A DNA stretch of 64,000 nucleotides from Candidatus Amesbacteria bacterium (GCA_027371535.1 DAHXMV010000001.1:96879-160878), one strand, 5' to 3'. Positions 7,642 through 54,674 are shown, counted from the stretch's first letter. Program-made: numbers and translations. The notes: generated by a model not told the origin, from the letters alone.

Positions 7642-8915
7642 AAGGATTTTAAAACAGTATGAGCTGCACGGTTACCCAAATCGAGGGCATAATTAACGCC
7701 CCTGTCCCAGGGATAAACCTGCTGAATATTGGCTAAGTATAATCCGCTGACCGGGGTTTTGAAGGGCGTGATCCGGGAACCGGCGCCGGGATAAAAAACC
7801 GGTTGGGCAAAACCTGTTTTCCAGGCCCAGGATTTTCTGACCCGGGTTAAATTAAATCCGGGATTAATTTTTTTCAGGTGAGGTAAAAACAAATGCAACA
7901 ACTGTTTATCCGTAAAGGAGAAAAACCGATGGCCGGCCGGTAAATAGTTGCCGATATACAATATATGGTCGCCGCCATAATGATCCGGGGAGATAAAATT
8001 GGTGTGCTCCACCACCGCCAGATAGGGCATGGTCCGGTCGTTGATATTCAGCCAATAAACCCGGTCCATAAAGCCGGCTTTCAAAGCCAGGACCAGAGAA
8101 ACGGCCCCCAGGCCGGTCTGAAACTTTAGATTTTGGACATAATCGGCCGGAAATTCGGAGAACAAATTGAGAAAATATGCATTGGGCAGGGTGCACAGCA
8201 CCCGATCAAATTCGAAAGTATGTCCGTTTTGGGATACCAGCCGGAAAGCAGATCCAGTTTGGCTGATTTTTGCAATGCCGGTCTGATACCGGGTCCGGCC
8301 GCCGAGGGCGGAAAAATATTTATCCAGGCCTTTAGCAAAGGCGGTAAAACCCCCGTCCGGGTATCCCAACGACGGGGTACGGGTATGAATCCGGGCCCAA
8401 AACCAGGAGGCACAGATTTGGTCGGCAAGCGGACCGAATTTACCGGCAAAAAGCGGTTCCCAGAGAGTTTTCCAGGAAGTTTCCCCCATAGACGAGGCGA
8501 TCAGCCGGCGGGCGGTCTGATTTTCATAGATTTGCCATACGGGGTTAATTTTCAATCCTGCCAGCCCCAGACCGGTCCGCAAGCGGTCTACCACCGGCAT
8601 GCGGGAAAACCGGAGCAGGGAAAGCGGGGAATCCAGCTGTTCTATCCGACCGTCAATTAAAGTGGAAGTTATGGGACGATGGTAAGAAACTTCCGATTTT
8701 ATGGTATCGGCATAATCCAAAAATACCCTATCGGAAGCAAAGACGTGATGATAATGCCTTTCCAGCGGCCAGGACCACGATTCATCCTGAAACCCCGCGG
8801 CCAAACCGCCGGGCAACGCCTCTTTTTCCAGAATGGTGACCCGATGACCGGCTGCGGCCAGAGTAATCCCGGCAGCCAAACCCGTATAGCCCGCGCCGAT
8901 AATGCCGATCTTCAT
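7638..8915 (-). CDS. FAD/NAD(P)-binding oxidoreductase (amine-oxidase / phytoene-desaturase / protoporphyrinogen-oxidase-like fold)
   Basis: N-terminal Rossmann dinucleotide motif 'KIGIIGAGYTGLAAGITLAAAGHRVTILEK' then 'GGL'. 425 aa soluble protein. The substrate cannot be inferred. Confidence 0.7.
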   Translation of the reverse strand: MKIGIIGAGYTGLAAGITLAAAGHRVTILEKEALPGGLAAGFQDESWSWPLERHYHHVFASDRVFLDYADTIKSEVSYHRPITSTLIDGRIEQLDSPLSLLRFSRMPVVDRLRTGLGLAGLKINPVWQIYENQTARRLIASSMGETSWKTLWEPLFAGKFGPLADQICASWFWARIHTRTPSLGYPDGGFTAFAKGLDKYFSALGGRTRYQTGIAKISQTGSAFRLVSQNGHTFEFDRVLCTLPNAYFLNLFSEFPADYVQNLKFQTGLGAVSLVLALKAGFMDRVYWLNINDRTMPYLAVVEHTNFISPDHYGGDHILYIGNYLPAGHRFFSFTDKQLLHLFLPHLKKINPGFNLTRVRKSWAWKTGFAQPVFYPGAGSRITPFKTPVSGLYLANIQQVYPWDRGVNYALDLGNRAAHTVLKSL

Positions 8916-8919
8916 TTGG

Positions 8920-9204
8920 TTAATAACCCAAAAACTGGCGGGCCGGAATTAACAGCCGGCCCGGTTCTATTTTATCCGGTTTAGAGGTCAAATATAAAGC
9001 GGCTGCGACCCGGGGATAATAATCGGCAAAATAATTATTATCCGAGAGAGCGGTTTTTAAAACCGCCGCCGGCTGCAGGGGATTTTCAGCCCGGCTGATG
9101 TTTAACAAAAAGAAGTCATCGTTGGTAAAAAAGGTGTTAAAGGCCGGAAAAAAAAGGCAGACGGTTATGAGGAATCCCACCAGCAAAGTTTTTATCCCCG
9201 GCAT
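8920..9204 (-). CDS. Small protein with an N-terminal signal/anchor helix, unknown function
   Basis: 94 aa. 'MPGIKTLLVGFLITVCLFFPAFNTFF' is a hydrophobic N-terminus. Tightly packed between flanking genes. Confidence 0.35.
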   Translation of the reverse strand: MPGIKTLLVGFLITVCLFFPAFNTFFTNDDFFLLNISRAENPLQPAAVLKTALSDNNYFADYYPRVAAALYLTSKPDKIEPGRLLIPARQFLGY

Positions 9205-9205
9205 A

Positions 9206-10339
9206 TCAGGCTACCCAATAACCAAACGCAAACAGGGAAAGATAAATAAAGAAAGCCATACCGGACAGACTGAATAACAGATACCTGAGACGGGGAAATC
9301 CGGCCGCAAAATCCCCCAATACGATAAACAACGGAAAGCACACCAGCACATAACGGGGCAGGGAAACAAAATTACCGGTAAGGGTGGGTAAAAATAAGGC
9401 AAAAAGACTGAAAACAGAATATGAAAGCCGCTGTCTGAACAGAGAAAAAACAGTCAGAGTGATGAAAACGATACCGACGATGAATTCCAACCAGATGGTT
9501 AAATAAAGAAAATCATTTGTCGATACGGTCGTAATCATTTTCAGATAACGCCAGATAACCTGATAGGGTAAAACTATACGCAGACTGCGGGATTGATTAA
9601 AAGCCGTCTGAACGTGATAAAAAGCCAGGGCGTCACCGGTGGTTTTATAAAGATAAAACATGTATATTCCCAAAGACAGCGGGATTAAAAGCAAAGGCAG
9701 CAACCGGGTCAAAATCCGGCCGAAAGTAAGGTTTTGCATACCCGATTGCCAGAAATATTCGATAATCAAAGCCGGGAAGAGAAACACGCCGACCAATCTG
9801 GTATAGGCAGCCAGGGCCCCGAATATGCCTGCCAGCAGCCATTTCCCCCGTCTGGCCGTGTAGAAGGACAGCACGATCCATAACAAACAAAGCCCTTCCG
9901 TATACACCGAGGAGAAAAAAAAGCTGGTGGGAAAAAATAACAACAGCAGTACCGTCCATCGTGAGACCTGCCGGGGATAATCCATCTCTATTAATCTGAC
10001 CAGAAAAATCAGGGCCAGGAAAAAAGAAAAAGAGGAAATAACCACGCCGATTAAAACCGGTGATCTGACATATGTGAAGACCCAACTGATAAGCTTGGGG
10101 TACAAAGGGAAAAATGCCTGCTGTCCGAAATTGTATCCATGAGTGGCGATCAATATAAAATGCACGCCGTCAAAATTTGAGCGGAAGTTTAAGAGCGGGT
10201 CCCGGTGATATTCTGTTACCCCCCCGCCCAAATAGGTGCCGCTTTCCCTGACCGGTAAAAACCCGGAAGCAATGATGACTACGGCGAGGATCAGGACCTG
10301 CCAGATAAGATAATATTTCAGAATAGCTTTAAATGTCAT
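9206..10339 (-). CDS. PIG-V/Gpi18-like (GT76-like) integral membrane mannosyltransferase candidate
   Basis: 377 aa polytopic protein. 'DGVHFILIATHGYNFGQQAFFPLYP' resembles the conserved 'D..HF..IA..GY...AFFP' loop of the PIG-V mannosyltransferase family. Confidence 0.45.
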   Translation of the reverse strand: MTFKAILKYYLIWQVLILAVVIIASGFLPVRESGTYLGGGVTEYHRDPLLNFRSNFDGVHFILIATHGYNFGQQAFFPLYPKLISWVFTYVRSPVLIGVVISSFSFFLALIFLVRLIEMDYPRQVSRWTVLLLLFFPTSFFFSSVYTEGLCLLWIVLSFYTARRGKWLLAGIFGALAAYTRLVGVFLFPALIIEYFWQSGMQNLTFGRILTRLLPLLLIPLSLGIYMFYLYKTTGDALAFYHVQTAFNQSRSLRIVLPYQVIWRYLKMITTVSTNDFLYLTIWLEFIVGIVFITLTVFSLFRQRLSYSVFSLFALFLPTLTGNFVSLPRYVLVCFPLFIVLGDFAAGFPRLRYLLFSLSGMAFFIYLSLFAFGYWVA

Positions 10340-11400
10340 ATGGACTTGTTTAATACCGAACGATAGACGGACAACATTTCCCCGGCAACCCGGTCCCAGG
10401 AAAATAACAGGGCTTGGGCCGGTCCTGCAGCGGACATTCCGGAACGCAAAGTCTTATCAAAAAAAACGGACTTTAATTTGGCGGTGAAATCCATTTGATT
10501 ATAAGGGTCAAAGTAAACAGCACTAAGTCCGGCAATTTCTGGCAGTGATGAAGCCCGGCTGCAAATAACCGGGGTACCGCACGATAAAGCCTCCAATACC
10601 GGAAATCCAAAACCTTCCCGGAATGAAGGCTGACAGTAAACAGTAGCCAATTGATAAACGGAGACCAGTTCCGCATCCGGGACAAAACCCAATCTGATAA
10701 ATTGGGATTTTTGATTTACGATGTACGATTTAAGATTTTCCAGGTGCCTGAGTTCGGGGTGACGGGAATCCAGGGTTTCAATCTCCAAAGCGGATTTGCC
10801 GGCCAGAACCAAAGGTATTTTCAATTCCTGACAGGCCCGGAATAAACCCGGCAGATTTTTATTCCAGTTAATGTCGCCGACATAAAGCACAAATTCGGGC
10901 GGTAAATGATATTTGCTCCTGACAATTTTCAATTCGGCCGGATTTTTTTTACGGGTATATACCGGGTCGGCAGCCAAATATACCAATTTGATTTTGGCAT
11001 CGGGTATCTGCAGGTATCTTTTTATACCTTTTACAGAGGCGTAGGAATCCGTTACCACTACAGAAGCTGATCTTAACGCGATTTTTTGCCATAAAAAATT
11101 CAGGCTACCACGCAGCCCGGGGCGGTAAATATCGGGAAATTCCAGGGGGATGACATCGTGGACGGTGACGACCGCGGGGAGTGATTTGAAAAAGGGCAAA
11201 CCGGGTTTAAACAGATCAAAATAGGGATAGTGGACCAAATCCAGCCCGGAAAAATTTCCCGGACCGACCTCCAGAATTTGGAAATCACTTTGTAACGCAG
11301 CCCGCGTTAAAGCGGCTACCAGATTGCGGGTATAAAACCCCACCCCGCGCACCCCATGAGCCTGGCTTAAGTTCCGGGTGACGATGCCGACCTTATTCAT
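10336..11400 (-). CDS. GT4 family glycosyltransferase
   Basis: 'REGFGFPVLEALSCGTPVICSRASSLPEIAG' GT-B signature. Start placed at the Met of 'MNKVGIVTRNL...' (rc ATG at 11398-11400). This gives an 8-nt overlap with the upstream GT2 stop instead of a 120-nt overlap. Confidence 0.8.
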   Translation of the reverse strand: MNKVGIVTRNLSQAHGVRGVGFYTRNLVAALTRAALQSDFQILEVGPGNFSGLDLVHYPYFDLFKPGLPFFKSLPAVVTVHDVIPLEFPDIYRPGLRGSLNFLWQKIALRSASVVVTDSYASVKGIKRYLQIPDAKIKLVYLAADPVYTRKKNPAELKIVRSKYHLPPEFVLYVGDINWNKNLPGLFRACQELKIPLVLAGKSALEIETLDSRHPELRHLENLKSYIVNQKSQFIRLGFVPDAELVSVYQLATVYCQPSFREGFGFPVLEALSCGTPVICSRASSLPEIAGLSAVYFDPYNQMDFTAKLKSVFFDKTLRSGMSAAGPAQALLFSWDRVAGEMLSVYRSVLNKSI

Positions 11401-12178
11401 CCGGGTACCTGGAGATCTGCCAGTATTTAATGTAGGAAATACCCCAGCGTAAACCGGAAAACAGGGCAAATACAAAACCCGGAAAGCCGTCCGCGTAGCC
11501 CCTGTGCCTGACATAAATACTGAAAAATTCGCTGAAGGGTTTGATAAACAGATAGTCTACCGCCTGCCATGAGCCGACAGGAATATTTTCAGTCCGTAAC
11601 TGATCGGCAATCAGCGAGGTGTAACGCTGATAACGGAGTAAATAATTTTCAAAGTCGGGCGTATTATAATGCAGCAGGTTATTTTTCAGATACTCCGTGG
11701 GGCCATTTACCTCTGCCTGTTCATGAACGTCTTTGGCCGGCAGCCGGCCCAAGCCCCGTTTATAAAGCCTAAGGGTAAGATCCGGGTATTGTCCGCCTTT
11801 GGTTAAAGGTGAACCCAAAAAATAATTTAACCGGGGAATCCAGTAACCGGCTAATTGCCCAGGTTGGCTGATAACCCCGGCAATTTCCTCAGCCAGCGGA
11901 GGTGAAACCACCTCATCGGCATCCAATTGCAATATCCAGTCCCCGCCGGCCGCATCTATCGCCATATTTTTATTGATATGGAAGTTCGGTTTATTGTCAG
12001 CGGAGTAGACCTGAGCGTGGTATTGGCGGGCAATATCGACAGTTTTATCAGTTGATTTACCGTCCACGACAATAATTTCGTCCGCCAGGCGGCTGACAGA
12101 TTCCAGACAGCGGGCCAGATTTCTTTCCTCATTGTATGTGGCTAAAACAACCGAGAGGAGAATTTTTTTATCAGCCAT
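11393..12178 (-). CDS. GT2 family glycosyltransferase (WaaE/KdtX-like small GT2)
   Basis: 'ILLSVVLATYNEERNLARCLESV...IIVVDGKSTDKT...QLDADEV'. Start at 'MADKK' (rc ATG at 12176-12178). Confidence 0.8.
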   Translation of the reverse strand: MADKKILLSVVLATYNEERNLARCLESVSRLADEIIVVDGKSTDKTVDIARQYHAQVYSADNKPNFHINKNMAIDAAGGDWILQLDADEVVSPPLAEEIAGVISQPGQLAGYWIPRLNYFLGSPLTKGGQYPDLTLRLYKRGLGRLPAKDVHEQAEVNGPTEYLKNNLLHYNTPDFENYLLRYQRYTSLIADQLRTENIPVGSWQAVDYLFIKPFSEFFSIYVRHRGYADGFPGFVFALFSGLRWGISYIKYWQISRYPDE

Positions 12179-12182
12179 AAAT

Positions 12183-13802
12183 TCAGTTGGAAATAATTTT
12201 AAAAGCCGGACTGCCACCCGGAAAATAAATAGTTTTGACGATATTGACACCGACAGACGGGATATCCTCCGGGGCCGCGACGATCAGGGTACCATGAATA
12301 TCCCGTACCAGGTTCCAGTTTGTGTCCGTGAACCGGTATTTGTCAAATTGCTTCACCGTAGAGAAATTATACCGGTCACGCAAAGTTAATTCATGATGAC
12401 CCTGGAATTTTTGGGGCGGATATTTTAAATAAAATAAAAACAAAATATAGGGCTGGTCATATTTATCGGTCACTAAAATCCGGTGATACCTGTCCTGGTT
12501 TCGAGCCACATAGGCTACCATTTCCTTAAACCCGTATTCCCAGGCTGAAGGATAAGTTTGGGGATAATGAACATAATATTCATGAAGGTAACGGGTAAAC
12601 TGATACGTATAAATCCCCAGCACCAAAATACATATTACAGACAATTTCCAATCTGAAAACAAACCCAAAAAATAAGACAGACCGGCGGCGGTAATAATGG
12701 TCAGGGGAATAACCATATTCTGGGCTCTTAAAGCGTGGGGGACCTGGAAAGTCATGGCGGCAGCCACGGGAGCCACCAGAAGCCATAACCAGACAATTTT
12801 TAATTTCGAATTTTTAATTTTTAATAAATAAAATAACCCGAAGAGCAAAAAAACAAAATCTGTCCAGTAGAGAAGACCCGTTTCCGGCACCCGGTTGCGC
12901 TGGATGGCATCGCCGCCGATAAACAGGAAATTTCCGTCAAAATGGGAAAGGTAGTTTTTAATAAACTGAATGGTATAGAAGACAGGCCGGTTGAAAAGCA
13001 TTTTTTCAAGCACCGCCCCCGGTCCGTGATATTGGCCGCGCAGCTCATTAACCAGATTCAGCGGACCCATATCGGCCAACAGACCGACACCGGAAAGACG
13101 CGAGGCGGTATCTTTATTAAAAACCGAAAAAAGGAGCGGCAGAGAAATCAAAAACATCAGAGGAAGCGCTGCCATACAGGTTTTTGCATGGGAAAAAACA
13201 TATTTATAACTGATAATTAACAGGCCGAATAACAACAACGGGGAGATGACTCTGGCAGACTGATATGTGTACATCGACAAAATCAAATTTAAAAGAAAGA
13301 AGGTAAAATTAATAAAAGTGGGTGTTTTTCGCCACTTGAGGAAAAAAATTACTCCCAGAAGTATCAGAGCAGTAGATACATTGACTTCCCAGGCACCCCG
13401 GGAAAAGTGAAGATGCCAGGGGGAGATAGCCAGGAGTACGGAGCTGACGGCAGAGAGTTTGTAGTTATAAGTTATCAGTAAGACAAAAACAAAAATTAAA
13501 AATACCGAAAGAACACCAAAGAGAGCTGACGGAAGACGGACAGCAAATTCATTCAAGCCCAGGAATTTAACGACCGGAACCAAAAGGTAAGAATAAAGAG
13601 CCGGTTTATAGTCACCGAAAGATTCCAGGTTAACCGGCAGCAGATGACCATCTTCGTCCTTACCGGTATTTAAAAGCGAATAGGCGTTATAACCCAGAGC
13701 CGCCTCATCGGCGTTTAAGCCTGAAGGGAAATCGGAAACGGCATAAAATCGCAGAACAGCTGCAAAAATTATTATCAGGATTATTAACAGATATTTTTTC
13801 AT
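12183..13802 (-). CDS. GT39/PMT-like GT-C membrane glycosyltransferase (family A paralog 1)
   Basis: 539 aa. TM1 then a loop reading 'NADEAALGYNAYSLLNTGKDEDGHLLP...FGDYKPALYSYL', comparable to the PMT 'DE' loop-1 motif. At least 10 further TMs. Confidence 0.7.
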   Translation of the reverse strand: MKKYLLIILIIIFAAVLRFYAVSDFPSGLNADEAALGYNAYSLLNTGKDEDGHLLPVNLESFGDYKPALYSYLLVPVVKFLGLNEFAVRLPSALFGVLSVFLIFVFVLLITYNYKLSAVSSVLLAISPWHLHFSRGAWEVNVSTALILLGVIFFLKWRKTPTFINFTFFLLNLILSMYTYQSARVISPLLLFGLLIISYKYVFSHAKTCMAALPLMFLISLPLLFSVFNKDTASRLSGVGLLADMGPLNLVNELRGQYHGPGAVLEKMLFNRPVFYTIQFIKNYLSHFDGNFLFIGGDAIQRNRVPETGLLYWTDFVFLLFGLFYLLKIKNSKLKIVWLWLLVAPVAAAMTFQVPHALRAQNMVIPLTIITAAGLSYFLGLFSDWKLSVICILVLGIYTYQFTRYLHEYYVHYPQTYPSAWEYGFKEMVAYVARNQDRYHRILVTDKYDQPYILFLFYLKYPPQKFQGHHELTLRDRYNFSTVKQFDKYRFTDTNWNLVRDIHGTLIVAAPEDIPSVGVNIVKTIYFPGGSPAFKIISN

Positions 13803-15436
13803 TTGAGAGCGACTGCTGTTAAAGCCGGCTGGCCGTCAGGATATTTAATGTCTCCCAGGTGCAATAGTCCGGCAAACCGGGTATCTTTGTCCGGCAGCTC
13901 ATACTGATCACCGATAAAAATCGTGTCTTTCTGGCCTCTCAGAGACGGCCAGAAAACAGGCATAAACCTGAATTGGGAAAAACCTGAAACCTGTCCCACG
14001 TCGCCATTGGGTCCGGCAATCAACCTGGCCTGTTTCTGATACCCGGCCGGGTTGATTTTGAGATAAAAAAGGAAAAAGATATAAGGCTGACCCAGCTTGT
14101 CAGTCATAACCACATGGTGATATTCAGAGAGATATGGTTTAATTAATTGAATCACGGGTTTGTAAGCCGAAACCCATTCCCGACTTGAGTAATAAGAGTT
14201 GTGAAGGTAATACATATCCAGATAAAGGACCAGAAATAATCCGACTAACAGTACATATGCCCCGGCCAAAAATTTGCGGTTTAGCAGACGGGAAATTCCA
14301 ATTCCGATAAAGATAGTGAGCGGAATTAGCATCGGTAAAGACCTGACTCCAGACACCAAATCCCGGGAAAAGGCAGACGGAACAGGAGCCAGGAACAACC
14401 AGGAAAGCAAAAAAACCGTGCTGCGGTTTAATTTCCTCAAAATATAAATTATTCCCATAAGCAAAGTGACCAGTTCAGGATAATAAAAATAACCCTGATT
14501 ATATTCAGCCAGACGCAAACTGGTCCAATCACCCTGAATAAATAAGAACCGGGGTGAAAAATGATTTAAATATCTCTGATAGACCCCTATCAGCTGATTA
14601 AGCAGTTCCGAATGAAAAAGAAAGTATGTCCAGTCTTTTGAGGCAGTGTGATCCTGGGCCAAAAGCCGGCTGACGTAATCGCCCCCCCGGGTGTAACTGA
14701 AAACACTGAAGACTTTTAACCGGCCGGACTGGGAAGCAAATCCCCAAATTATAGGTAAAAGGAATAAAGCTGAAACAAGCAAAGGGGTGATGATGCGGGT
14801 CAGTTTCAAATTACGGCGAAATATTAAAAGCAGGCTGAAAACAATTAATGGGGTAAATAATTTAGCACCCTGATAAGACCAGAAAGTCAGACCGAAAAAC
14901 AGAAAAGCCAATAGATAATGCCATCTGGATGCTGATTTATGTGCACGGATAAACAGGACTGCACCTAAAACGGTTAAAAACAGCGACAGGTTGGCCTCCC
15001 AGGCCCCCCGGGAAAAATGGATAGCCCAGGGATTTAAAGAAAGAACCAGGGTAGAAAGCAGCGCAGAAGAGGGATTTTCAGGATATAAATACCGCACCAG
15101 AAGAAAAATCAAAACGATCATTATCGTGCCGAAAAGAGCCGAAGGCAGCCGGGTGGAAAATTCGTTTAAATCCAAAAATTTTACCGAAGGGACGGTAAAA
15201 TAAATATATAAACCCGGTTTATAATCCCCAAACGATTTAAAGACAACCGGAGCCAACTGCCCGTATTCGTCCCTGCCCGTTCTTAACAGCGAATAGGCAT
15301 TGTAGCCGAGAGCCGCTTCATCCCAGGTAAATCCGGCAGGACGGATATTTAAGCCCACAACGCGCAATATCAGGCCTATAAAGATAATCAGTCCCAGTAA
15401 AACAAAATTCTTTTTCATATCAAATCTGTTTAACAA
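13799..15436 (-). CDS. GT39/PMT-like GT-C glycosyltransferase (family A paralog 2)
   Basis: 545 aa. 'WDEAALGYNAYSLLRTGRDEYGQLAPV...GDYKPGLYIYFTVP'. Tandem to paralog 1, about 60% identical across the conserved loop. Confidence 0.7.
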   Translation of the reverse strand: MLNRFDMKKNFVLLGLIIFIGLILRVVGLNIRPAGFTWDEAALGYNAYSLLRTGRDEYGQLAPVVFKSFGDYKPGLYIYFTVPSVKFLDLNEFSTRLPSALFGTIMIVLIFLLVRYLYPENPSSALLSTLVLSLNPWAIHFSRGAWEANLSLFLTVLGAVLFIRAHKSASRWHYLLAFLFFGLTFWSYQGAKLFTPLIVFSLLLIFRRNLKLTRIITPLLVSALFLLPIIWGFASQSGRLKVFSVFSYTRGGDYVSRLLAQDHTASKDWTYFLFHSELLNQLIGVYQRYLNHFSPRFLFIQGDWTSLRLAEYNQGYFYYPELVTLLMGIIYILRKLNRSTVFLLSWLFLAPVPSAFSRDLVSGVRSLPMLIPLTIFIGIGISRLLNRKFLAGAYVLLVGLFLVLYLDMYYLHNSYYSSREWVSAYKPVIQLIKPYLSEYHHVVMTDKLGQPYIFFLFYLKINPAGYQKQARLIAGPNGDVGQVSGFSQFRFMPVFWPSLRGQKDTIFIGDQYELPDKDTRFAGLLHLGDIKYPDGQPALTAVALK

Positions 15437-17006
15437 AAAGGGCGGGAGAACGGTCTAAAAAGTTTATCCGGTATAAAAGCCCCCCGTTTTTTATCTGATG
15501 ATCCGGACTGGTAACCACAATGGCGTGAATCCCCGGATCCCGCTTACTAACTATATCCGGCAACTCCCAATCGTTAACAAAACGGAATTTGGAAAAAGCA
15601 TCCACCCAGAACCAGTCATCGTGAAAGTTCCAGGCAAGACTTGCTGTGGTCTGATAATAACGGGGGTCGATACGCAGATACCAGAGGAAATATTCGTGCG
15701 GTTCACCGTACCTTTTAGTGACTATAATCCGGTCATATCTGTTTGAAATTGTGTTCAGATAAGAAGTCAGCTGTTGATAACCGTATTGCCAGCTGGCAGA
15801 GTATTTAACCGGATAATTGCTTAAAAAATCCGAGAAATAGAACCACACAAACAGACAGTAAACCCCGATAAAAAGCCCGCCCAAAACAAGATGAAATTTT
15901 TGCTGAAGACGTTTCCAGAAGTACCAGAAACCATAGACAGTGATTAAAAATACCACAGGCAGCATAGCGGTGGACCTGATGACAGCAAACTCGTCCCTGG
16001 TAACCGCAGCCGGAAGAGGCGAAAGCAGGATCCAACTTAAAAGAAAATATTTACGTTTTTTGAATAAAAGGTATAAACCAAAATAAAAGAAGGGCAAATC
16101 GGCCCAATTCATGACCCCGAATCCGGGTATGCTGTACTGATACTGAGTACCTCCGGATATAAATAAAAATGCCGGAGAAAAATATTGGAAATAATGCCGG
16201 ACGGCGGTGGTCATAAAATACACCGGCCGGTTTACCAGCAACCTGGTGAGTAATAACGGCAAAGGGCTATGGTTTCTTAATTGCTCCAAATAGGCTATGG
16301 CACCGGAATCCAATATCCCAACCCAGGAACTCCGGGCCCGGGTCTGGGGTAAAATGAGGATTCCCAATCCGAATATAATTACTGACAATGAGGCCAGAAA
16401 GACCCTGGTATTTTTAATAAATTTGGGGAGCAAAAAAATTAAAAACAGGGGAATAAATATCCGGGTGTTGTGATATGCAAACAAACTTAATCCCCAGATA
16501 ACCACCGCCCAAAAAGGCCTTTTAGCAAAATAAAGCGCCAGGCCCAAAGTAAGCAGCAGAACCGCCAGGTTTGATTGGAAGACCGCCCGGGAAGGAAAAA
16601 AAGTCCAGGGCTCAAAGGCAATAAACAAGCATAACAACAAAGCCGGAGCGGGCTTTTTGAAATAATAAAAACCGGCTAAAAAACCCAAAAGACAGGTTAA
16701 CACCCCTACCAAAGCCGGTACCATACGGACCGAATAATCTGTGGGGCCAAAAAGAAAAATCGGAACGACCGTCAGATAGGTATCCAGAACTGCCGGATAA
16801 TCCCCATAAGCGCGATAATTTAAAACCGGAAAAGGCACCCCCCACTGATCCCTACCGGTTTTTAACAGGGAATAAGCATTATAAGCATGGCTGACTTCGT
16901 CCCAATTTAAAGCAGGAGGCAAATCCACCAGCCGGTAAAACCGGATAAAGGCAGCGGAAAATAAAATTAATACCAGAATCAGCCAATACGTCTTTTTAGC
17001 AAACAT
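15420..17006 (-). CDS. GT39/PMT-like GT-C glycosyltransferase (family A paralog 3)
   Basis: 528 aa. 'WDEVSHAYNAYSLLKTGRDQWGVPFPV...YGDYPAVLDTYL'. Confidence 0.7.
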   Translation of the reverse strand: MFAKKTYWLILVLILFSAAFIRFYRLVDLPPALNWDEVSHAYNAYSLLKTGRDQWGVPFPVLNYRAYGDYPAVLDTYLTVVPIFLFGPTDYSVRMVPALVGVLTCLLGFLAGFYYFKKPAPALLLCLFIAFEPWTFFPSRAVFQSNLAVLLLTLGLALYFAKRPFWAVVIWGLSLFAYHNTRIFIPLFLIFLLPKFIKNTRVFLASLSVIIFGLGILILPQTRARSSWVGILDSGAIAYLEQLRNHSPLPLLLTRLLVNRPVYFMTTAVRHYFQYFSPAFLFISGGTQYQYSIPGFGVMNWADLPFFYFGLYLLFKKRKYFLLSWILLSPLPAAVTRDEFAVIRSTAMLPVVFLITVYGFWYFWKRLQQKFHLVLGGLFIGVYCLFVWFYFSDFLSNYPVKYSASWQYGYQQLTSYLNTISNRYDRIIVTKRYGEPHEYFLWYLRIDPRYYQTTASLAWNFHDDWFWVDAFSKFRFVNDWELPDIVSKRDPGIHAIVVTSPDHQIKNGGLLYRINFLDRSPALFVKQI

Positions 17007-18634
17007 AAGGGTGATAATAATAAACTAAACAGGCTAATATAATTACCAAGGCTTCTGGGCCAGGTATCAGAAAATACGGCGTAGATCTGATGGAACCCGG
17101 GGTCAAGCAAACGGAAACTAGTCAAACCGAGCAATCCCGAAGGTGAGGAGGCAACTGACCGGCCATCCACCAGCACATGCCAACCAGGAAAATAGGTAAT
17201 GGGCAAACTGACAACCGCCGGCGCCCGGGAAACATCGAGAAGATAATCAGCTGAAGAAGATTTCTTGACTGCTGAGACAGTCAGTCCGTCACCTGAGATA
17301 AACCGGGCGGAAACAGGGGCAAAATCCGCCGGCGGCTGGGGAGCTGACCGCGGCCAAAAATCGGTTAATGAAGAACTGCGGCCTTCATCCCACAACGGGC
17401 CGGAATACTGCTCTTTGTCCGTGATGTTTCTCCAGATATCCGGGCGGAAAAAATTGTAATTAATCAGAATTACCAATAAAATCAATAACACAGGCCACAA
17501 GCGGATGCCGGGCCAGTTAAAAAAACTGACGGCGTAGCCGGATGCCAGGGATAAAAAGAAGAGGGCCGGCCCTAAAAATCTCCAGGGAAACTGAATGTAT
17601 TTCATTAACGGGACCAGGTTCCAAATGACGGAAGACTTACCATGGGTGAGAAACAGAGCCGCCACTCCCAGAAGACAAAAAGTTAAGAAAGAAAAATTGT
17701 GTTTCTTCAGAATGAAACCAAGACAGATAATCACCAGGGGCAGGATCCAGTGCAGCTGGCCGATGGAGATACTGAGGAATTTTTTAGCCCATAACGAGGC
17801 CCCATATCCCCAGAAGCGGGAAATAAATAATTCGTTGAGAGTGGCGAAATGAATATGAAAATCATAATAGCCACTTACGGTACTACCCAGATCGATAAAT
17901 TTATTTTCAGCCAATACCGGCAGTAAATAGTAAGCGGATAAGCCCAAAGCTATAATTCCAACCAGTACTAATCCGGGAACGCCGGAAAAGTCGTGTCTAT
18001 GGACAGCACCGATCAGCCAGTACAAACCCAGAAAAGGTAAAAACATAAATACGGATAAATTATGGGTGGTAATTAAAAGCGCCAGGGACATAGCTAAAAG
18101 AAGCAAATAGCGTGAGGAATGTTTTTCCAAATAAAGATCCAGAAAATAAATCAGCAAAGGATATAAAACAAAAGACAGAGCCTCGGGTAACGCCCCCCTG
18201 ACCCAAACATCCACCGAGCGATAGGGGGCATAAAGGTAGAAAACCGCCGAGACCAAGCCGCCTTTATTTCCCCAGTATTTTCTGGCCAGGAGAAACATGG
18301 TGAAACCGGAAAGCAGCAGGGATAAACCGTAGACAATTTTGGCGGAATCCAAAAGCGACAGACCGGTAAAATGGACAAGTTCAGTCAGCCAGTAGGGAAA
18401 TTGGGCATAATAGTTGAACAAGGGTTCACCATAACCTTTTCCGGAATCGGCTGCCCACCGGCAGGGAAAAACACGGTCCTTTATACACTGATCAAACTCC
18501 TTCATTCTGAAGAGGTGAGGGTCGTGCATGGTAAAGATTCCCGACCTGACCATCAGAGAAAAAGTCGGCAGGGCCAATACCACCAAAACCGCCAAAAAAC
18601 GCAGAGTTTTCATCCTAAGGTCCATTATACTCAA
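16979..18634 (-). CDS. YfhO-like polytopic membrane protein (family B GT-C candidate)
   Basis: 551 aa. N-terminal motif 'MHDPHLFRMKEFDQCIKDRVFPCRWAADSGKGYGEPLFNYY' is shared with the proteins at 50782-52419 and 59829-61535. It resembles the YfhO-family 'HD..FHL.R...G.FP....GYG...FY' opening. Confidence 0.45.
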   Translation of the reverse strand: MSIMDLRMKTLRFLAVLVVLALPTFSLMVRSGIFTMHDPHLFRMKEFDQCIKDRVFPCRWAADSGKGYGEPLFNYYAQFPYWLTELVHFTGLSLLDSAKIVYGLSLLLSGFTMFLLARKYWGNKGGLVSAVFYLYAPYRSVDVWVRGALPEALSFVLYPLLIYFLDLYLEKHSSRYLLLLAMSLALLITTHNLSVFMFLPFLGLYWLIGAVHRHDFSGVPGLVLVGIIALGLSAYYLLPVLAENKFIDLGSTVSGYYDFHIHFATLNELFISRFWGYGASLWAKKFLSISIGQLHWILPLVIICLGFILKKHNFSFLTFCLLGVAALFLTHGKSSVIWNLVPLMKYIQFPWRFLGPALFFLSLASGYAVSFFNWPGIRLWPVLLILLVILINYNFFRPDIWRNITDKEQYSGPLWDEGRSSSLTDFWPRSAPQPPADFAPVSARFISGDGLTVSAVKKSSSADYLLDVSRAPAVVSLPITYFPGWHVLVDGRSVASSPSGLLGLTSFRLLDPGFHQIYAVFSDTWPRSLGNYISLFSLLLSPLCLLKRRIG

Positions 18635-18636
18635 AG

Positions 18637-20247
18637 CTAGGGGGATTTTTCAGCCAGGACAATAGCCGGAGTGTCATCGGGATATCTGGCGGCGACGAAG
18701 TAAGTGATTGACGCGGGAAAATCTTCCGGACGGCCGACATATAATGTGGGAACATATACGGGATCGGGATAAAATAAATTACCAAAGCGAAAATTACTGA
18801 GTTTATAACCATCATACTGATCCAGGAATTTGTAACCCTGGTTTTCAAAATCCGACCAGTCGGGAGTAGAAGCCTGAAAAAATCGGGGGTCAGTCCGGGT
18901 ATAAAATGCCAGGTAGATCTGGGGTTCGGAAAGGGATCTTGAAAAACGTATTTCCGGGTAGTCAGGAGCGGCCTTTAATATCCGGGGAAGTGCCTGCAAC
19001 CAGCCATAACCCATAGCCTTGGCAGAAACCAACGGCAGCTTTTGTGTATACGTAACCGTAAAAGCGCCGAAGGAAACCAACAGGGCAATTAAGAACAAAC
19101 CTGTCATCAGTCCTTTACGGCCGGCTAAAGAATCTAAATAAATTCCGCCGCCGACGGCGGATAATAACACCAGCGGGATAATCATGACTGCGGACCGATT
19201 GGCAGCAAAACCGGGTCCCTTGGTTAACGCAGCCGGGACAGGGCTTATAAAAAGCAGAAGGAGAATAAAGAAATATATTTTCCCGGGCTTCTGGATAAAC
19301 TTAACCAAAAAAATCATTAACAGAGGAAATTCAATTAAATAAATTACACCCAAACCCGGTAGCATGCCATAGGTGGCTTCTCCGGGACCGGAAAAAAACA
19401 GAAAATCCGGAGAAAAGTAAGTCAGATAATTTTTAATAAAAACCGGTAAGGCAAAGGTGAGTTTGTTGTAGAGTAACTGAGCCAGCGGCCCCGGCCAACC
19501 GGACTGAACTGCAACCCTGTGGTATAAAGACATCGACTGCCATTTGTCAGGGGGATTAAAAATGGAGATATCATATGATCTGGGATTTAAGAAGATTAAC
19601 GAATAAAAAGCTCCGCCGGAAAGAATTAAAAATATAACCCAAGTGAGAAATATTTTCATTTTCGGGATATAAATGACTGAAAGTCCCAACAATATCAAGG
19701 GTGTCAATAACCGGGCAGAATGATAGGAATACATGCCCAGGGCCAAAATTAAAGCCCCTAGGTAAGGTCTTTTATAAAAACACAGAGCCATCCCCAAAAG
19801 AACAAAAATCACCGCTAAATTTGCCTCAAAAGCCCCCCGCGAAAGAGATATATACCAGGGAGAAACAGTCAAAAGCAAAGCAGCTAATAATCCTGTAGTA
19901 TGACCGAGAATTTTGACTGTTAACAGATAGATGACCAGGATAGCCAAAAAGCTTAAAATGGAGTTTGGCAAGCGGGTGGAAAATTCATTCAAACCAAAAA
20001 ATCGGATTGCAGGCACGGTCAAAAAGCTATACAGAGGCAGTTTATAGTCGCCATATGATTTCAACCCGGTTACCGGCAATTTCCAAAAAGCAGTCCCCCA
20101 TTCATCCCTACCAGTCTTTAAAAGGTTATATGCATCATAACCGAAGGTGGCCTCGTCGGGGGTAAAACCAAGCGGAAATTTATCCAGCCATAAAAATCTG
20201 GTCAGACAAGCCAGAACTATGATCAATATAAAAATGAAACAGCGCAT
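18637..20247 (-). CDS. GT39/PMT-like GT-C glycosyltransferase (family A paralog 4)
   Basis: 536 aa. 'TPDEATFGYDAYNLLKTGRDEWG...YGDYKLPLYSFLTVP'. Confidence 0.7.
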   Translation of the reverse strand: MRCFIFILIIVLACLTRFLWLDKFPLGFTPDEATFGYDAYNLLKTGRDEWGTAFWKLPVTGLKSYGDYKLPLYSFLTVPAIRFFGLNEFSTRLPNSILSFLAILVIYLLTVKILGHTTGLLAALLLTVSPWYISLSRGAFEANLAVIFVLLGMALCFYKRPYLGALILALGMYSYHSARLLTPLILLGLSVIYIPKMKIFLTWVIFLILSGGAFYSLIFLNPRSYDISIFNPPDKWQSMSLYHRVAVQSGWPGPLAQLLYNKLTFALPVFIKNYLTYFSPDFLFFSGPGEATYGMLPGLGVIYLIEFPLLMIFLVKFIQKPGKIYFFILLLLFISPVPAALTKGPGFAANRSAVMIIPLVLLSAVGGGIYLDSLAGRKGLMTGLFLIALLVSFGAFTVTYTQKLPLVSAKAMGYGWLQALPRILKAAPDYPEIRFSRSLSEPQIYLAFYTRTDPRFFQASTPDWSDFENQGYKFLDQYDGYKLSNFRFGNLFYPDPVYVPTLYVGRPEDFPASITYFVAARYPDDTPAIVLAEKSP

Positions 20248-22062: not shown

Positions 22063-23314
22063 TCCAGGAATACCAGGAAATAAATAAGATAATGACTGCG
22101 CTCACAATTGTAACCCAGGCGGAGACCAGAGGAACCAACACCGGAATATCCGGAAACCACCACTGATGGTACATATTAATCAGGTGGGCGAGCGAGACCA
22201 GAAAATAAATCGGCCAAAGTTGCCGGTTTTTAGAAGCCGAGATGGCCATAAAAGGCAAAACAGGTGCCAGATATCGCTCATGCATCCGGGTCAGAAACAT
22301 GAATGAGGTGAAAGCCAGGAGGCCAAACAAATTAATCAGAGCGGTATTTTTGCGGGAGACCAAAAATCGGGAAAAAAGGATGGCCGTCAGACATATAAAT
22401 ATCAATTGCCCGAACAAACTGGCGGAAATACCGCGGATAATTTCGACCGAATCAGAAATTTTTGCCAAATGGCTGAACAAAGCCCAAAGATTAAAAGCGT
22501 GATCGGAAATATAATCGGAACCGGAGCCGGTCTGGAAACGATTAATGTAGACAGAGACAGGATAAAAAAGGTTATCCGTATGCCAATTAATAAAAGGCAG
22601 GTAAGCCGCATAAAAAAGCAGACACTGGAGGACCAGACCCAGCAGGGTTTTCCGCCAGCCGACTTTTTTTATACTGAATACGGCAAAAACGGGAAAAAAT
22701 AAGAGCGAGGATTGCTTAAACAACAAAGCAGCCATAAATGAAGCGTGGGCAGACAGATATTTATTATGCAATAACAGCCAGACAGCCAGTAAAACAAAGA
22801 ATACAGGTACGGATTCCAGCTGTCCCCAGAGGGTGCTGTTATAAAACACTGAAGGATTGAATAAATACAGACACATGGCTCCAAAAGCTGCCGGTGACTT
22901 AACATTAAAAATGGTTTTAGCCAGCAGATAAATCAAAATACCGATACCAATATCGGAAAAAATGGAAACAATTTTGTGAAAAGCGGGTAAAACATTCTGA
23001 TTTTCAAAAAAGAAAACCAAAAATGACGGAGACAAGTGGATATTAACCCGAAAATGAACGAAGCGGACAAGAGAATTCAAATTATTAAACAACCAATGGG
23101 AGGTCACAAAAGAATAAAGCGCCAGGGGCGGATAAGTTGGCTGCATCACATGGCTATATGACCGGTCGTAAGCACCGGAAAAACCGGATTCCAAAATACC
23201 CGCCGACCAGGCGATATGATTGTTTACGTCCCCGCTGTAAATTGATGTGGACAAGTATATCCGTAATCCCAAGGCCAAAATTACTGCCAGAAGAATATTC
23301 ACGGGGTGTTTCAT
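22031..23314 (-). CDS. GT87/DUF2029-like polytopic membrane protein (family C)
   Basis: 'SGDVNNHIAWSAGILESGF...PTYPPLALYSF'. Start at 'MKHPVNILLAVILALGL' (rc ATG at 23312-23314) gives a 4-nt overlap with the upstream gene. The ORF-track start at 23410 would overlap by 100 nt. Confidence 0.45.
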   Translation of the reverse strand: MKHPVNILLAVILALGLRIYLSTSIYSGDVNNHIAWSAGILESGFSGAYDRSYSHVMQPTYPPLALYSFVTSHWLFNNLNSLVRFVHFRVNIHLSPSFLVFFFENQNVLPAFHKIVSIFSDIGIGILIYLLAKTIFNVKSPAAFGAMCLYLFNPSVFYNSTLWGQLESVPVFFVLLAVWLLLHNKYLSAHASFMAALLFKQSSLLFFPVFAVFSIKKVGWRKTLLGLVLQCLLFYAAYLPFINWHTDNLFYPVSVYINRFQTGSGSDYISDHAFNLWALFSHLAKISDSVEIIRGISASLFGQLIFICLTAILFSRFLVSRKNTALINLFGLLAFTSFMFLTRMHERYLAPVLPFMAISASKNRQLWPIYFLVSLAHLINMYHQWWFPDIPVLVPLVSAWVTIVSAVIILFISWYSWIAVYFNESQN

Positions 23315-24924
23315 GATTTGGTCACCAGGTAAAATATCGGCTGATTCAGAGGGTTGGTACTGGTAAATAAAACTTTTACACCGCCCGGGGGATTTTTTCT
23401 CCAATCCCAATCACCGGCAACGTTATCCCGCTGACTGACCACATACAGGTCTCCGGGAATCAGGACATCGGGAATGGATTTACCGGGAGGTAAGGAAAAA
23501 TTTCCGAAATAATATTTCGGGGCCAGGAAAAAGCCATAATAATCGGGGGCGATTCCGCTTTTGGGCTGATCCAAAGTGAAATTCCGCTGAAACTCCGCCG
23601 GCGGATAACGGGAATAGAACAGGAAACGGATCAGGGAAGGTTCGTAGGTGTTATTGATAAACACCCGGGGATATAAAGGAGCCAGTCGGGCGACCTGGGT
23701 CATGGCGGTTTTAAAGCCGACATGCCACCAAATCCAGGTTCTTTGTGAATAATGGTTAAGATAATAGTTTGCCGCCTGGACAAATTGATAAGAAATAACA
23801 AGCCAGATTATCAGGTAGACGAATATTTTTACCGGACGGCGGAAAAAATTGACGGAAGTTATTATACCTGTACCGACAGCTACCGAAAGCGGAGGGATCA
23901 TCATAAATAGTCGGGTAGCATGATAAGCTCCGTCATAAGTCAAAGCTGCCGGGACAGGGGCCAAAAGCAACCAGGACAGCCAGAGATATTGCCGTCTTTT
24001 AATCATAAACACCAGGCCGAGGATGAGAAAGGGTGCCCAAACCGGCAATAACTCACCGATATACTGGAGACTTTGCCGGGCTGTGGGGTCTCCCCGGATA
24101 AACAGGAATTCGGGGGAAAAAGCCGACAGATAATTCGTGTAAATTTTCTGGGCGATGACGACGGGTTTATTGGAAAACCATCTTTCCCAGAAACCGGGGT
24201 TTTCCCGGCGGAAATTGAATATCTCATCGGTAATTTCCCGGTTATTAAACAAGCCCACCTTACCAAACCGCTCGGCGGCATGGCCTGAAAACAGGGAAAT
24301 TACAAAAGGCAGTATCAACACAACCGGCAACAGACTGACCAATTTAATTTTAGGTTTGTAAAAAACGCCCAGACAAACAAGCCATAACGGGGTAAAGACG
24401 GTGGCGGTGCTGTAGATATACGGCGTCAGAATGAAAAACAGACCCGCCATAAAATACTGCCGCCTGATAAATAACAGGGTACCCAAAAGTTCAAAATCCA
24501 AAAGCAGAACGGCTTCGAATGCCGCCCGGGAATAGAGAATATGCCAGGGCATTAAAGATAAAGCCAGGGATGAGATCAGGGACAGAGAACGTTTATGGGA
24601 AAGCTGATACACAAGCAAAAATAAGATGACAGGCGACAGAGTTCCCAGGACGACCTCAGGACCCCGGACGCCCCATTCGGTATTATTAAAAATAAAAATT
24701 GCGGGGACGGTGTAATACATCAGCAAAGGAGTCCGCCATTCTGACAGGGAATGGATATAGGTGGGAAATAACTGACCGTATAAATCCCTGCCGGTATGCA
24801 GGAGGGAATAAGCCTGATAACCGACATCAACTTCGTCCCCGAACAGTTCGGGCGGTAAAGATGAGACTGCATATCCCCGTATGAGGCCTGAAAACAGAAG
24901 CAGTAAACTTAAAATCAAACCCAT
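23311..24924 (-). CDS. GT39/PMT-like GT-C glycosyltransferase (family A paralog 5)
   Basis: 'FGDEVDVGYQAYSLLHTGRDLYGQLFPT'. Start chosen at 'MGLILSLLLLFSGLIRG', where TM1 begins as in the paralogs. Alternative upstream ATGs lie at 24975 and 24960. Confidence 0.65.
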   Translation of the reverse strand: MGLILSLLLLFSGLIRGYAVSSLPPELFGDEVDVGYQAYSLLHTGRDLYGQLFPTYIHSLSEWRTPLLMYYTVPAIFIFNNTEWGVRGPEVVLGTLSPVILFLLVYQLSHKRSLSLISSLALSLMPWHILYSRAAFEAVLLLDFELLGTLLFIRRQYFMAGLFFILTPYIYSTATVFTPLWLVCLGVFYKPKIKLVSLLPVVLILPFVISLFSGHAAERFGKVGLFNNREITDEIFNFRRENPGFWERWFSNKPVVIAQKIYTNYLSAFSPEFLFIRGDPTARQSLQYIGELLPVWAPFLILGLVFMIKRRQYLWLSWLLLAPVPAALTYDGAYHATRLFMMIPPLSVAVGTGIITSVNFFRRPVKIFVYLIIWLVISYQFVQAANYYLNHYSQRTWIWWHVGFKTAMTQVARLAPLYPRVFINNTYEPSLIRFLFYSRYPPAEFQRNFTLDQPKSGIAPDYYGFFLAPKYYFGNFSLPPGKSIPDVLIPGDLYVVSQRDNVAGDWDWRKNPPGGVKVLFTSTNPLNQPIFYLVTKS

Positions 24925-25819
24925 TTCTGATATTATAACTGTAGTGGTATCAGTAATCATTATTTCCTTTAACACAAAGGAAATTACCCTAAAATGCCTG
25001 GATCATCTGCTGGCATCGGAAGGAGCGGATCTGGAAGTCATTGTGGTGGATAACAGTTCATTTGACGGATCGGCCGAAGCAATTGCCGAAAAATATCCGC
25101 AAATAAAGCTGGTCGTTAATAAAAAGAATACCGGTTTTGCCAGGGCAAATAATCAGGGCATGGGACTGGCTAACGGGGAATATTTGCTTTTGTTAAACAG
25201 CGACTGTTTTGTGGATAAGGATACAATTAAAAAGATTCTGGCCTCCGATTACGTGCTGAATAACAGCGACGTCATAGGGATCAAATTATTAAATACCGAC
25301 GGCAGTATTCAACATACATTCGGCTATTTTCCCACATTATTCAGGGTCATCGCTCTCATGTTGTTCATAGATAACCTGCCGATAGCCAGAAATTTTTTTA
25401 AATCCATTCATGTCAGGGATAATAACCGGTATTTGACCACCCATGAAGCAGACTGGGTAATGGGAGCTTTTGTATTTTTAAAACGCCGCGTCTGGGAAAA
25501 TACGCGGGGTCTGGATGAAAAATATTTTATGTATGGGGAAGAAATGGAATGGATGTACAGGATAAAAGCCGGAGGGATGACCATTAGGTATTTCCCGGGC
25601 TCAAAAGCATATCACATCGGAGGAGCAAGTTCGCCGAACAAAGCCCCGGCAATTATCGGCGAAATGGTCGGCTGGAAGTACTGGTTTGGCAAATACTACC
25701 CCCCCTGGCAGCAAAAAATACTGCCTTTTTTTATTATCTTCGGCTGCATGCTGAGGATGGTGTTTAAGCCAAAACTGGGCAGGTTTTATCGGGAAGCTAT
25801 AGGAAAAATTCGCAGTTAG
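24881..25819 (+). CDS. GT2 family glycosyltransferase (rhamnosyltransferase-like)
   Basis: 'VVVSVIIISFNTKEITLKCLDHLLAS...EVIVVDNSSFDGS...LNSDCFV'. The 5' end is ambiguous: ATG 24881 overlaps the divergent minus-strand gene, and an in-frame GTG at 24944 is a possible alternative start. Confidence 0.7.
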   Translation: MRPENRSSKLKIKPISDIITVVVSVIIISFNTKEITLKCLDHLLASEGADLEVIVVDNSSFDGSAEAIAEKYPQIKLVVNKKNTGFARANNQGMGLANGEYLLLLNSDCFVDKDTIKKILASDYVLNNSDVIGIKLLNTDGSIQHTFGYFPTLFRVIALMLFIDNLPIARNFFKSIHVRDNNRYLTTHEADWVMGAFVFLKRRVWENTRGLDEKYFMYGEEMEWMYRIKAGGMTIRYFPGSKAYHIGGASSPNKAPAIIGEMVGWKYWFGKYYPPWQQKILPFFIIFGCMLRMVFKPKLGRFYREAIGKIRS

Positions 25820-53918: not shown

Positions 53919-53920
53919 AA

Positions 53921-54673: not shown

Positions 54674-54674
54674 T

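Follow-up and report, generated by a model that had tools for sequence, protein, structure and literature searches.

Short-form YfhO-like GT-C membrane proteins in a glycan gene cluster of a Candidatus Amesbacteria bacterium

A 64,000-nucleotide stretch of a Candidatus Amesbacteria genome (GCA_027371535.1, DAHXMV010000001.1:96879-160878), hereafter “the window,” encodes three related membrane proteins, W1, W2, and W3. Judged from their sequences, they appear to form a “mini-YfhO,” a short-form sister subfamily of YfhO. All three are members of a catalogued but functionally uncharacterised family, and we think it likely that they are outward-facing GT-C polyprenyl-phosphate-sugar transferases of a short YfhO-like form, acting on an acceptor at the cell surface.

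The three genes lie exactly where an earlier, sequence-only reading of the window had placed them (Table 1). Its count of three members is correct because a family hidden Markov model (HMM), built from 123 family members and run against the open reading frames (ORFs) of the window, retrieves W1, W2, and W3 and nothing else, the next ORF scoring E 0.29. In BLASTP, W1 and W2 share 38% identity over 549 amino acids (aa; E 2e-100), W2 and W3 27% (E 1e-46), and W1 and W3 25% (E 5e-37), W3 being the most divergent of the three. With homology across the full length and E-values from 2e-100 to 5e-37, chance similarity is rejected.

Care is needed with the gene starts. The public gene call for W1 is 544 aa long and begins at an ATG at residue 8 of the form used here, and the start of W2 overlaps the stop of its upstream gene by 4 nt. 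For W3, the public call (P0387) of 537 aa starts at M32 and loses the first transmembrane segment (TM1). With the TTG at 59829 as its start, W3 regains a TM1 alignable with those of W1 and W2, and homologues of 560-561 aa back this long form. From that TTG, 36 bp are left to the divergent GT2 gene.

Directly after TM1, in what we call loop 1, the three paralogues share the block that the sequence-only reading had picked out. Invariant among them (W1 numbering is used throughout) are G32, H37, D38, P57, R59, W60, G67, G69, P71, F73, and Y81. The motif had been described as strictly conserved, which holds for its core residues, including D38, R59, W60, G69, and P71, but not for the whole of it: loop 1 of W3 reads ISGHD...K...FPPRW...GLGQPTFTFT and departs from the others at TM (SG), R43 (K), GYG (GLG), and YY (FT).

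Conservation was followed in 120 full-length sequences that score among the best and each represent a 50%-identity cluster; their median identity to W1 is 31%. The Asp, His, and Arg residues, whose conservation had been proposed as a check, are kept by most of them (D38 97%, H37 87%, R43 93%, R59 100%), as are P57 (96%), W60 (90%), G67 (91%), G69 (99%), P71 (97%), F73 (92%), and Y81 (90%). Across the protein, conservation peaks in loop 1, where the mean top-residue frequency is 0.61 and 10 positions reach 90% or above, and is lowest in the outer C-terminal domain (0.34). Elsewhere, K99, Y133, P137, R146, E151, P159, H191, P239, Q348, P350, W351, and R352 are near-invariant. D38 stands 8-9 residues past TM1 and is kept in every distant homologue that aligns there (~22-31% identity to W3); the motif residues are likewise kept in relatives 22-28% identical to W3, including some from Omnitrophota and Chloroflexota. 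On these alignments, the motif core is conserved far beyond chance.

The loop-1 motif defines a subfamily, because a remote Anaerolineae-like clade labelled with the Pfam family PF10131 (P0446-P0453) has a different loop 1 (“YPGFFE...”). That clade keeps K99, R146, E151, and P350-W351 and is without the PGW module and the terminal TM. Loop 1 also holds a cysteine pair, C50 and C58 (QC...PCRW), present in W1, W2, and ~55% of the representatives and absent from W3, which may form an extracytoplasmic disulfide stabilising the catalytic loop.

An AlphaFold2 model of W1, made from an 87-sequence alignment, has a mean predicted local distance difference test score (pLDDT) of 94.5 and a predicted template modelling score (pTM) of 0.93. 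It runs from TM1 (residues 3-29) through loop 1 with two short juxtamembrane helices (30-93) and ten TMs up to residue 395, and ends in a linker, a beta-sandwich (444-521), and a last TM (525-550). Many TMs do follow TM1, as had been noticed, but the model and hydropathy count 11 of them rather than about 12, and 12 in total rather than about 13, against a GT-C range of 8-13. Both the N-terminus and the C-terminus (KRRIG) are inside; given an inner N-terminus, the basic loops RKYWGNK, EKHSSR, HRHD, and LKKHN are inside too. Reading the sequence against the model and the conservation places all invariant polar residues, the W275-G276 loop, D406, and the PGW module on the outer face. Segment 271-290, the outer loop with W275-G276, is modelled with low confidence (pLDDT 64-69) and may be a mobile catalytic loop.

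The proteins had been called GT-C-like, and the model agrees: every significant full-length Foldseek match in the PDB (E ≤ 0.05) is a GT-C enzyme, namely STT3 and PglB (E 9e-5 to 1e-3), AftD, ArnT (5F15), Pmt4, AftA, EmbA/B/C, and ALG9/12. W1, W2, and W3 are accordingly predicted to have the GT-C fold. The beta-sandwich by itself matches accessory beta domains of glycosidases. Taken together, a conserved loop 1 and a variable outer domain would fit a conserved catalytic or donor site and a variable acceptor-binding part.

Kinship with YfhO over the full length is visible only when a YfhO profile, and not a single sequence, is used. When the family profile is aligned by hhalign with the single YfhO of the window, only the C-terminal “YFPGW..VDG” module is recovered (Prob 90.5%). 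Against a profile of 121 YfhO sequences, family residues 8-549 align with YfhO residues 1-760 over 507 columns (Prob 99.5%, E 2.3e-22), and the resemblance to YfhO that the sequence-only reading had remarked on is thus real homology. In this alignment, HD38 falls on the conserved Asp that YfhO has after TM1 (“PxD,” “PMPGD”), and R352 of the QFPWR motif on a conserved Arg. Counterparts are also seen for “G.(F/I)P.(R)W,” of which YfhO is missing R59, and for “G.P.”

The likeness extends to architecture, with a polytopic core, an extracellular domain between the last two TMs, a “YPGW..VDG” beta module, and a terminal TM (PMC5836110), as well as to the Asp soon after TM1, the Arg equivalent to R352, and an operon partnership with GT2. 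Size is another matter, and the family is indeed much shorter, as had been said: 545-568 aa, compared with 764 aa for the YfhO of the window, 764-850 aa for YfhO proteins, and 835 positions in the Pfam YfhO profile. YfhO has a 35-aa insert in loop 1 and ~200 aa more before the terminal beta module, in the outer domain; this domain measures ~130 aa in the family (residues 396-524) and 389 aa in Bacillus subtilis YfhO (PMC5836110). Conversely, HD, P.RW with the invariant R59, K99, R146..E151, H191, and QFPWR are family motifs absent from YfhO. The family occurs in bacteria of the candidate phyla radiation (CPR).

YfhO, CsbB, and GtcA form a genetically established three-component system for glycosylation of lipoteichoic acid (LTA) and wall teichoic acid (WTA), in which YfhO is the GT-C component for N-acetylglucosamine in B. 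subtilis, Staphylococcus aureus, and Listeria monocytogenes (PMC5836110, PMC8035078). The catalytic residues of YfhO could not be predicted in a 2018 study, we found no later literature that defines them, and the PDB sequence and fold searches run here returned no solved YfhO-family structure.

The sequence-only reading had suggested that this may be a distinct catalytic family, but it is not an unrecognised one. Its TM core already has a Pfam entry, PF10131 (PTPS_related) of the GT-C clan CL0111, and some members bear the NCBI name “6-pyruvoyl-tetrahydropterin synthase-related protein.” That they are functionally uncharacterised stands, the function of PF10131 being listed as unknown (PMC7801869). 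Against a gathering threshold of 26.4 bits, W2 (33.0) and W3 (45.6) pass, and W1 (25.9) falls short by 0.5 bit. The match covers profile positions 1-~286, or roughly the first 300, of 621 only and begins at W1 residue 73; therefore TM1 and the loop-1 motif fall outside the model, which covers only part of the family protein. The loop-1 motif is a new descriptor in this narrow sense only.

Other profile searches, of the kind proposed with the sequence-only reading (YfhO, DUF6541), gave a divided answer. With hmmscan, none of the three proteins matches PF09586 (YfhO; gathering threshold 28.5 bits) at E ≤ 1, and a custom YfhO HMM gives W1 21.6 bits only. W1 also passes PMT_2 (31 bits), and NCBIfam yields no meaningful match for any of the three. 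Among 87 family members, PF10131 is found in 70, as their best Pfam match, PMT_2 in 20, YfhO in 12 (at E ≤ 0.01, the best at 1e-11), and DUF6541 in five, with one TMEM260-like match. No already characterised family of another function claimed the proteins, and the motif is conserved in their homologues.

The family is large and dominated by Microgenomates, a part of the CPR. A word-indexed search with W1 found 806 homologues, the best from Amesbacteria, Blackburnbacteria, and Daviesbacteria, and an exhaustive search with a profile of the three paralogues returned representatives of 17,147 50%-identity clusters at E ≤ 1e-3, 5,119 of them reaching E ≤ 1e-30. A survey of dark families contains a functionally dark YfhO-like GT-C family, component 27 (representative UniProt A0A7X7MB17; Durairaj et al. 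2023, bioRxiv 10.1101/2023.03.14.532539), which, compared by description only, may be related: it too is a bacterial, YfhO-titled, Pfam-dark TM family, with a cluster of its own apart from YfhO and best PDB matches to STT3/PglB at medium TM-score. Its median length is 665 aa, against ~550 aa here.

Table 1. Positions in the window of the three genes, their motifs and domains, and the neighbouring genes discussed in the text
Feature	Position	Strand	Details and basis
W1	16979-18634	-	551 aa from TTG start; ORF, family HMM E 1e-184
W2	50782-52419	-	545 aa; ORF, family HMM E 9e-204
W3	59829-61535	+	568 aa from TTG start; ORF, family HMM E 4e-145
W1 loop-1 motif, residues 32-81	18392-18541	-	GIFTMHDPHLFRMKEFDQCIKDRVFPCRWAADSGKGYGEPLFNYYAQFPY; translation checked
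W1 D38 codon	18521-18523	-	
W2 loop-1 motif	52198-52353	-	GYFTMHDDLQAARQLEMNKCFADGQIPCRWVPDMGYGFGYPLFNYYPPLPYL; alignment of three paralogues
W3 loop-1 motif	59925-60083	+	GMISGHDTQAAVFKGEEFFNAIKDGSFPPRWSKRLDFGLGQPTFTFTYSMPYY; alignment of three paralogues
W1 QFPWR motif, residues 348-352	17579-17593	-	Outer loop before TM10; 99-100% conserved in 120 representatives
W1 extracytoplasmic beta-sandwich, residues 444-521	17072-17305	-	DSSP strands in model; YFPGW..VDG module as in YfhO C-terminus
W1 final TM, residues 525-550	16985-17062	-	Model helix; hydropathy peak 528-546; anchors outer domain
Long-form YfhO (comparator)	30633-32927	-	764 aa; PF09586 E 3.8e-16; homologues all PF09586
W1-type operon	11393-20247	-	Pfam and synteny; genes overlap by 4-28 nt
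PMT_2-like	18637-20247	-	W1-type operon; first, upstream of W1
GT-C-like, no Pfam match	15420-17006	-	W1-type operon; after W1
PMT_2-like	13799-15436	-	W1-type operon
PMT-like	12183-13802	-	W1-type operon
GT2	11393-12250	-	W1-type operon; last gene
W2-type operon	50782-59100	-	Pfam and synteny
PMT_2-like	57625-59100	-	W2-type operon
PMT_2-like	56141-57628	-	W2-type operon
PMT_2-like	54675-56144	-	W2-type operon
GT2_250	53921-54673	-	W2-type operon; 250 aa; two genes upstream of W2
PMT-like (PMT_500)	52416-53918	-	W2-type operon; directly before W2
GT2_236	59082-59792	-	236 aa; divergent from W3; PF00535 E 4e-30
PMT_2-like	61522-62601	+	W3 neighbour; overlaps W3 stop
GT2 fused to GtrA/DPMS TM domain	62610-63767	-	W3 neighbour; ~1 kb from W3
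Pfam-less ORF	15420-17006		Same gene as the W1-type operon entry above
Pfam-less ORF	23311-24975		
Pfam-less ORF	32932-34443		
Pfam-less ORF	34412-35614		
Pfam-less ORF	39289-40860		
Pfam-less ORF	40876-42480		
Pfam-less ORF	42467-43855		
Pfam-less ORF	45149-46972		

The surroundings of the three genes recur in relatives. A scan of species-representative genomes confirmed at least 573 loci. Neighbourhoods were drawn from the best 80; where these have a lineage in their record title, it is one of the Patescibacteria/Microgenomates (Ames-, Woese-, Davies-, Blackburn-, and Shapirobacteria). Immediate neighbours identical to those of W1 are found in 22 of the 29 W1-type loci, in other Microgenomates genomes. 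Most W2-type loci repeat the order GT2_250, PMT_500, W2; in relatives, two to three PMT_2-like genes precede GT2_250, and downstream there are often 1-3 further tandem W2 copies or three GT2 genes. In at least 10 genomes, as in the window, both operon types share a contig, with 14-31 kb between them. The conserved partner that follows W1 (15420-17006) encodes a protein with the loop-1 motif “NWDE...Y.A..L..G,” like that of ArnT.

Please note that many CPR-like contigs are titled “uncultured Gammaproteobacteria bacterium”; one of them is an 810-kb complete chromosome (OZ246419.1). Mislabelling in bulk submissions of metagenome-assembled genomes is the probable cause.

Tandem arrays of 3-4 W2-type paralogues stand behind a single GT2 gene in Woesebacteria, Daviesbacteria, and related genomes (loci L032, L035, L037, L041, L046, L048, L049, L051, L053, L054, L061, L064-L066, L070, L074, and L081), which suggests diversified acceptor or linkage specificity.

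A GT2 gene stands within 6 kb of the family gene in 71 of the 80 loci. The closest solved relatives of GT2_250 are GtrB sll0501, ArnC, and DPMS; those of GT2_236, a candidate polyprenyl-phosphate sugar synthase by sequence, are ArnC (E 6e-16), GtrB, and DPMS. The GtrA/DPMS TM domain is present in the window only as the fusion to GT2 listed in Table 1, and no stand-alone GtrA was found among the small window ORFs tested.

The top 150 representatives include five proteins of ~820-830 aa, from at least five separate 50%-identity clusters, in which GT2 is fused to a family member. In P0126, a GT2_250-type domain (41% identical to GT2_250 of the window) is joined to a W2-type body; the fusion was confirmed on its 30-kb contig (locus L083), where the gene at 6001-8466 is followed, at 8473-11772, by a GHMP kinase, a nucleotidyltransferase (NTP-transferase), a HAD phosphatase, and an epimerase. 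Together these last genes are a sugar-nucleotide pathway; it looks like one for an activated-heptose-like sugar, a clue to what the donor sugar of that organism may be. The other fusions (P0123, P0135, P0141, and P0153) carry a GT2_312-type (Glyco_tranf_2_3) domain. Eight further predicted proteins of 727-3329 aa (P0121, P0122, P0125, P0134, P0145, P0173, P0247, and P0253) have the family in tandem with itself or with a PMT_2/PMT-type GT-C, and are either fusions or merged gene calls.

Such partnerships have a parallel in GtrA/GtrB/Gtr(type), the three-component O-antigen glucosylation modules of Shigella and Salmonella phages. There, a conserved GtrB-like GT2 and a flippase are joined with variable GT-C enzymes, and the 2-4 W2 genes arrayed in tandem after one GT2_250 look like a case of several GT-Cs, each specific for an acceptor or linkage, drawing on a single donor. 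The differences are that the GT2s of the window are without C-terminal TMs, that the GT-C family is another one, and that there are up to at least five GT-C genes per operon. ArnT (GT83) and PMT (GT39), GT-C enzymes that depend on lipid-phosphate sugars, are similar in their fold (matches to 5f15 and 9i5k), in matching the PMT_2 core, and in an acidic residue after TM1 that is followed by a juxtamembrane helix. Loop 1 differs, reading HD...R...P.RW in the family and (W/P)DE...Y in Escherichia coli ArnT and in the products of neighbouring window genes.

From homology, fold, topology, motif conservation, synteny, and gene fusions, we infer a donor type, residue roles, and an acceptor along the following lines. 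A cytoplasmic GT2 of the GtrB/ArnC/DPMS kind, encoded in the operon, would load a sugar from a nucleotide sugar onto polyprenyl phosphate. The lipid-linked sugar would then be flipped over the membrane, a step for which nearby genes offer a GtrA domain and Wzx-type flippases, and the GT-C active site on the outer face would pass it to a cell-surface acceptor. D38 would likely be the catalytic base or an acceptor-activating residue; R59, K99, R146/E151, H191, and QFPWR348-352 are candidates for binding the phosphate and sugar of the donor; and the variable C-terminal beta-sandwich on the last TM probably positions the acceptor.

Several observations weigh against this proposal and should be kept in mind. 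The residue roles are read from position alone. The Foldseek matches, at probability 1.0, have low TM-scores of 0.36-0.50, and a PDB sequence search with the 87-sequence profile gave nothing at E ≤ 10. The hhalign comparison of the family profile with E. coli ArnT is not significant (Prob 0.9%), and the pairing of D38 with the ArnT “PDE” that it contains is suggestive only and was not used as evidence. Four of the five fusions carry the GT2_312-like type, which is not obviously a polyprenyl-phosphate monosaccharide synthase, and in the W1 operon, the terminal GT2 gene encodes a protein like the soluble protein glycosyltransferases GmaR and SunS, not like GtrB. Finally, the literature on PF10131/PTPS_related, CPR glycosyltransferases, and Patescibacteria GT-Cs contained no functional study that we could find.

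In the main alternative, the donor would be a polyprenyl-diphosphate-linked oligosaccharide rather than a monophosphate monosaccharide, and the proteins would be oligosaccharyltransferases, ligases, or polymerases like PglB/STT3, which we regard as unlikely. STT3 and PglB are the best Foldseek matches, although they lead ArnT by small margins at TM ~0.4-0.5, and the window encodes three Wzx-type flippases for lipid-linked oligosaccharides. The Glyco_tranf_2_3 type of the four fusions also stands directly upstream of W2 arrays in several loci; GT2s of this type, we assume, usually extend lipid-linked glycans in the cytoplasm. Set against this, it is GT2s of the GtrB/ArnC kind that recur most regularly next to the family genes, and one such GT2 is a fusion partner. 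No WWDYG-type peptide-binding motif was noticed in the sequence, in which a dedicated motif search was not run. The closest characterised homologue, YfhO, works with a C55-polyprenyl-phosphate (C55-P) monosaccharide (PMC5836110).

A different acceptor is the whole of the next alternative, by which the proteins would be PMT/TMTC-type O-glycosyltransferases that attach sugars to Ser/Thr of surface proteins (S-layer or pilus subunits, for example) rather than to glycolipids or polymers. The PMT_2 matches among the 87 members and the TMEM260-like one point this way, as do the PMT/PMT_2-like neighbour genes and the GmaR- and SunS-like GT2 of the W1 operon. PMT_2, however, models the GT-C core in general and takes in ArnT-like lipid glycosyltransferases as well, the MIR and TPR acceptor-binding domains are absent, and homology to YfhO is far stronger than homology to PMT. 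On balance, protein O-glycosylation strikes us as quite improbable.

That the proteins are transporters, scaffolds, or otherwise not enzymes, or that they are related to pterin metabolism, is very improbable: the inherited database name is all that speaks for it, and they have a predicted GT-C fold, outward invariant charged residues typical of a catalytic site, no PTPS (6-pyruvoyl-tetrahydropterin synthase) domain in Pfam or NCBIfam, and a place in a GT-C clan family whose function Pfam lists as unknown (PMC7801869). With nothing behind it but the name, the pterin-synthase reading is rejected on the fold and the missing PTPS domain, and defining the family as done here corrects the misleading “6-pyruvoyl-tetrahydropterin synthase-related” label.

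Seen as a whole, the window (1-64000) is a single super-cluster for glycan biosynthesis, with ~24 polytopic GT-C-like genes (PMT_2, PMT, GT87, PIG-V-like, YfhO, and PF10131), at least 14 GT2 and three GT4 genes, the three Wzx-type flippases, two methyltransferases, an Acyl_transf_3 protein, and a Glf-like flavoenzyme. Eight large ORFs (400-607 aa) have no significant Pfam match even at E ≤ 1; what their sequences and locations suggest is more membrane proteins of a divergent GT-C-like type. The super-cluster is more striking and unusual than the mini-YfhO family, whose description is sound and of moderate interest.

Tentatively, the polyprenyl-phosphate-sugar transferases proposed here might be placed as one station in a conserved glycan assembly line, found mainly in Microgenomates, that would build a complex glycan wholly outside the cytoplasm from polyprenyl-phosphate sugars, with at least five different GT-Cs per operon and ~24 in 64 kb. 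In this possible picture, HD...R...P.RW would be a distinct GT-C catalytic solution, and the W2 arrays would vary linkage or acceptor. If true, the assembly line would be analogous to that of mycobacterial lipoarabinomannan and arabinogalactan, but in sub-megabase CPR genomes, and the variation of the W2 arrays would be relevant to host attachment.

The family boundaries, the loop-1 signature, the kinship with YfhO, and the GT2 partners provide a handle on the surface glycans of Microgenomates, and, at ~550 aa, the protein could serve structural and mechanistic studies as a minimal enzyme of the YfhO type. It is important to remember the setting: CPR bacteria of ~0.8-1 Mb, the size of the related genomes, have shed most biosynthesis, yet in this genome at least 64 kb go to surface glycosylation, including three genes of the mini-YfhO family, whose products probably add sugars to the CPR cell surface.

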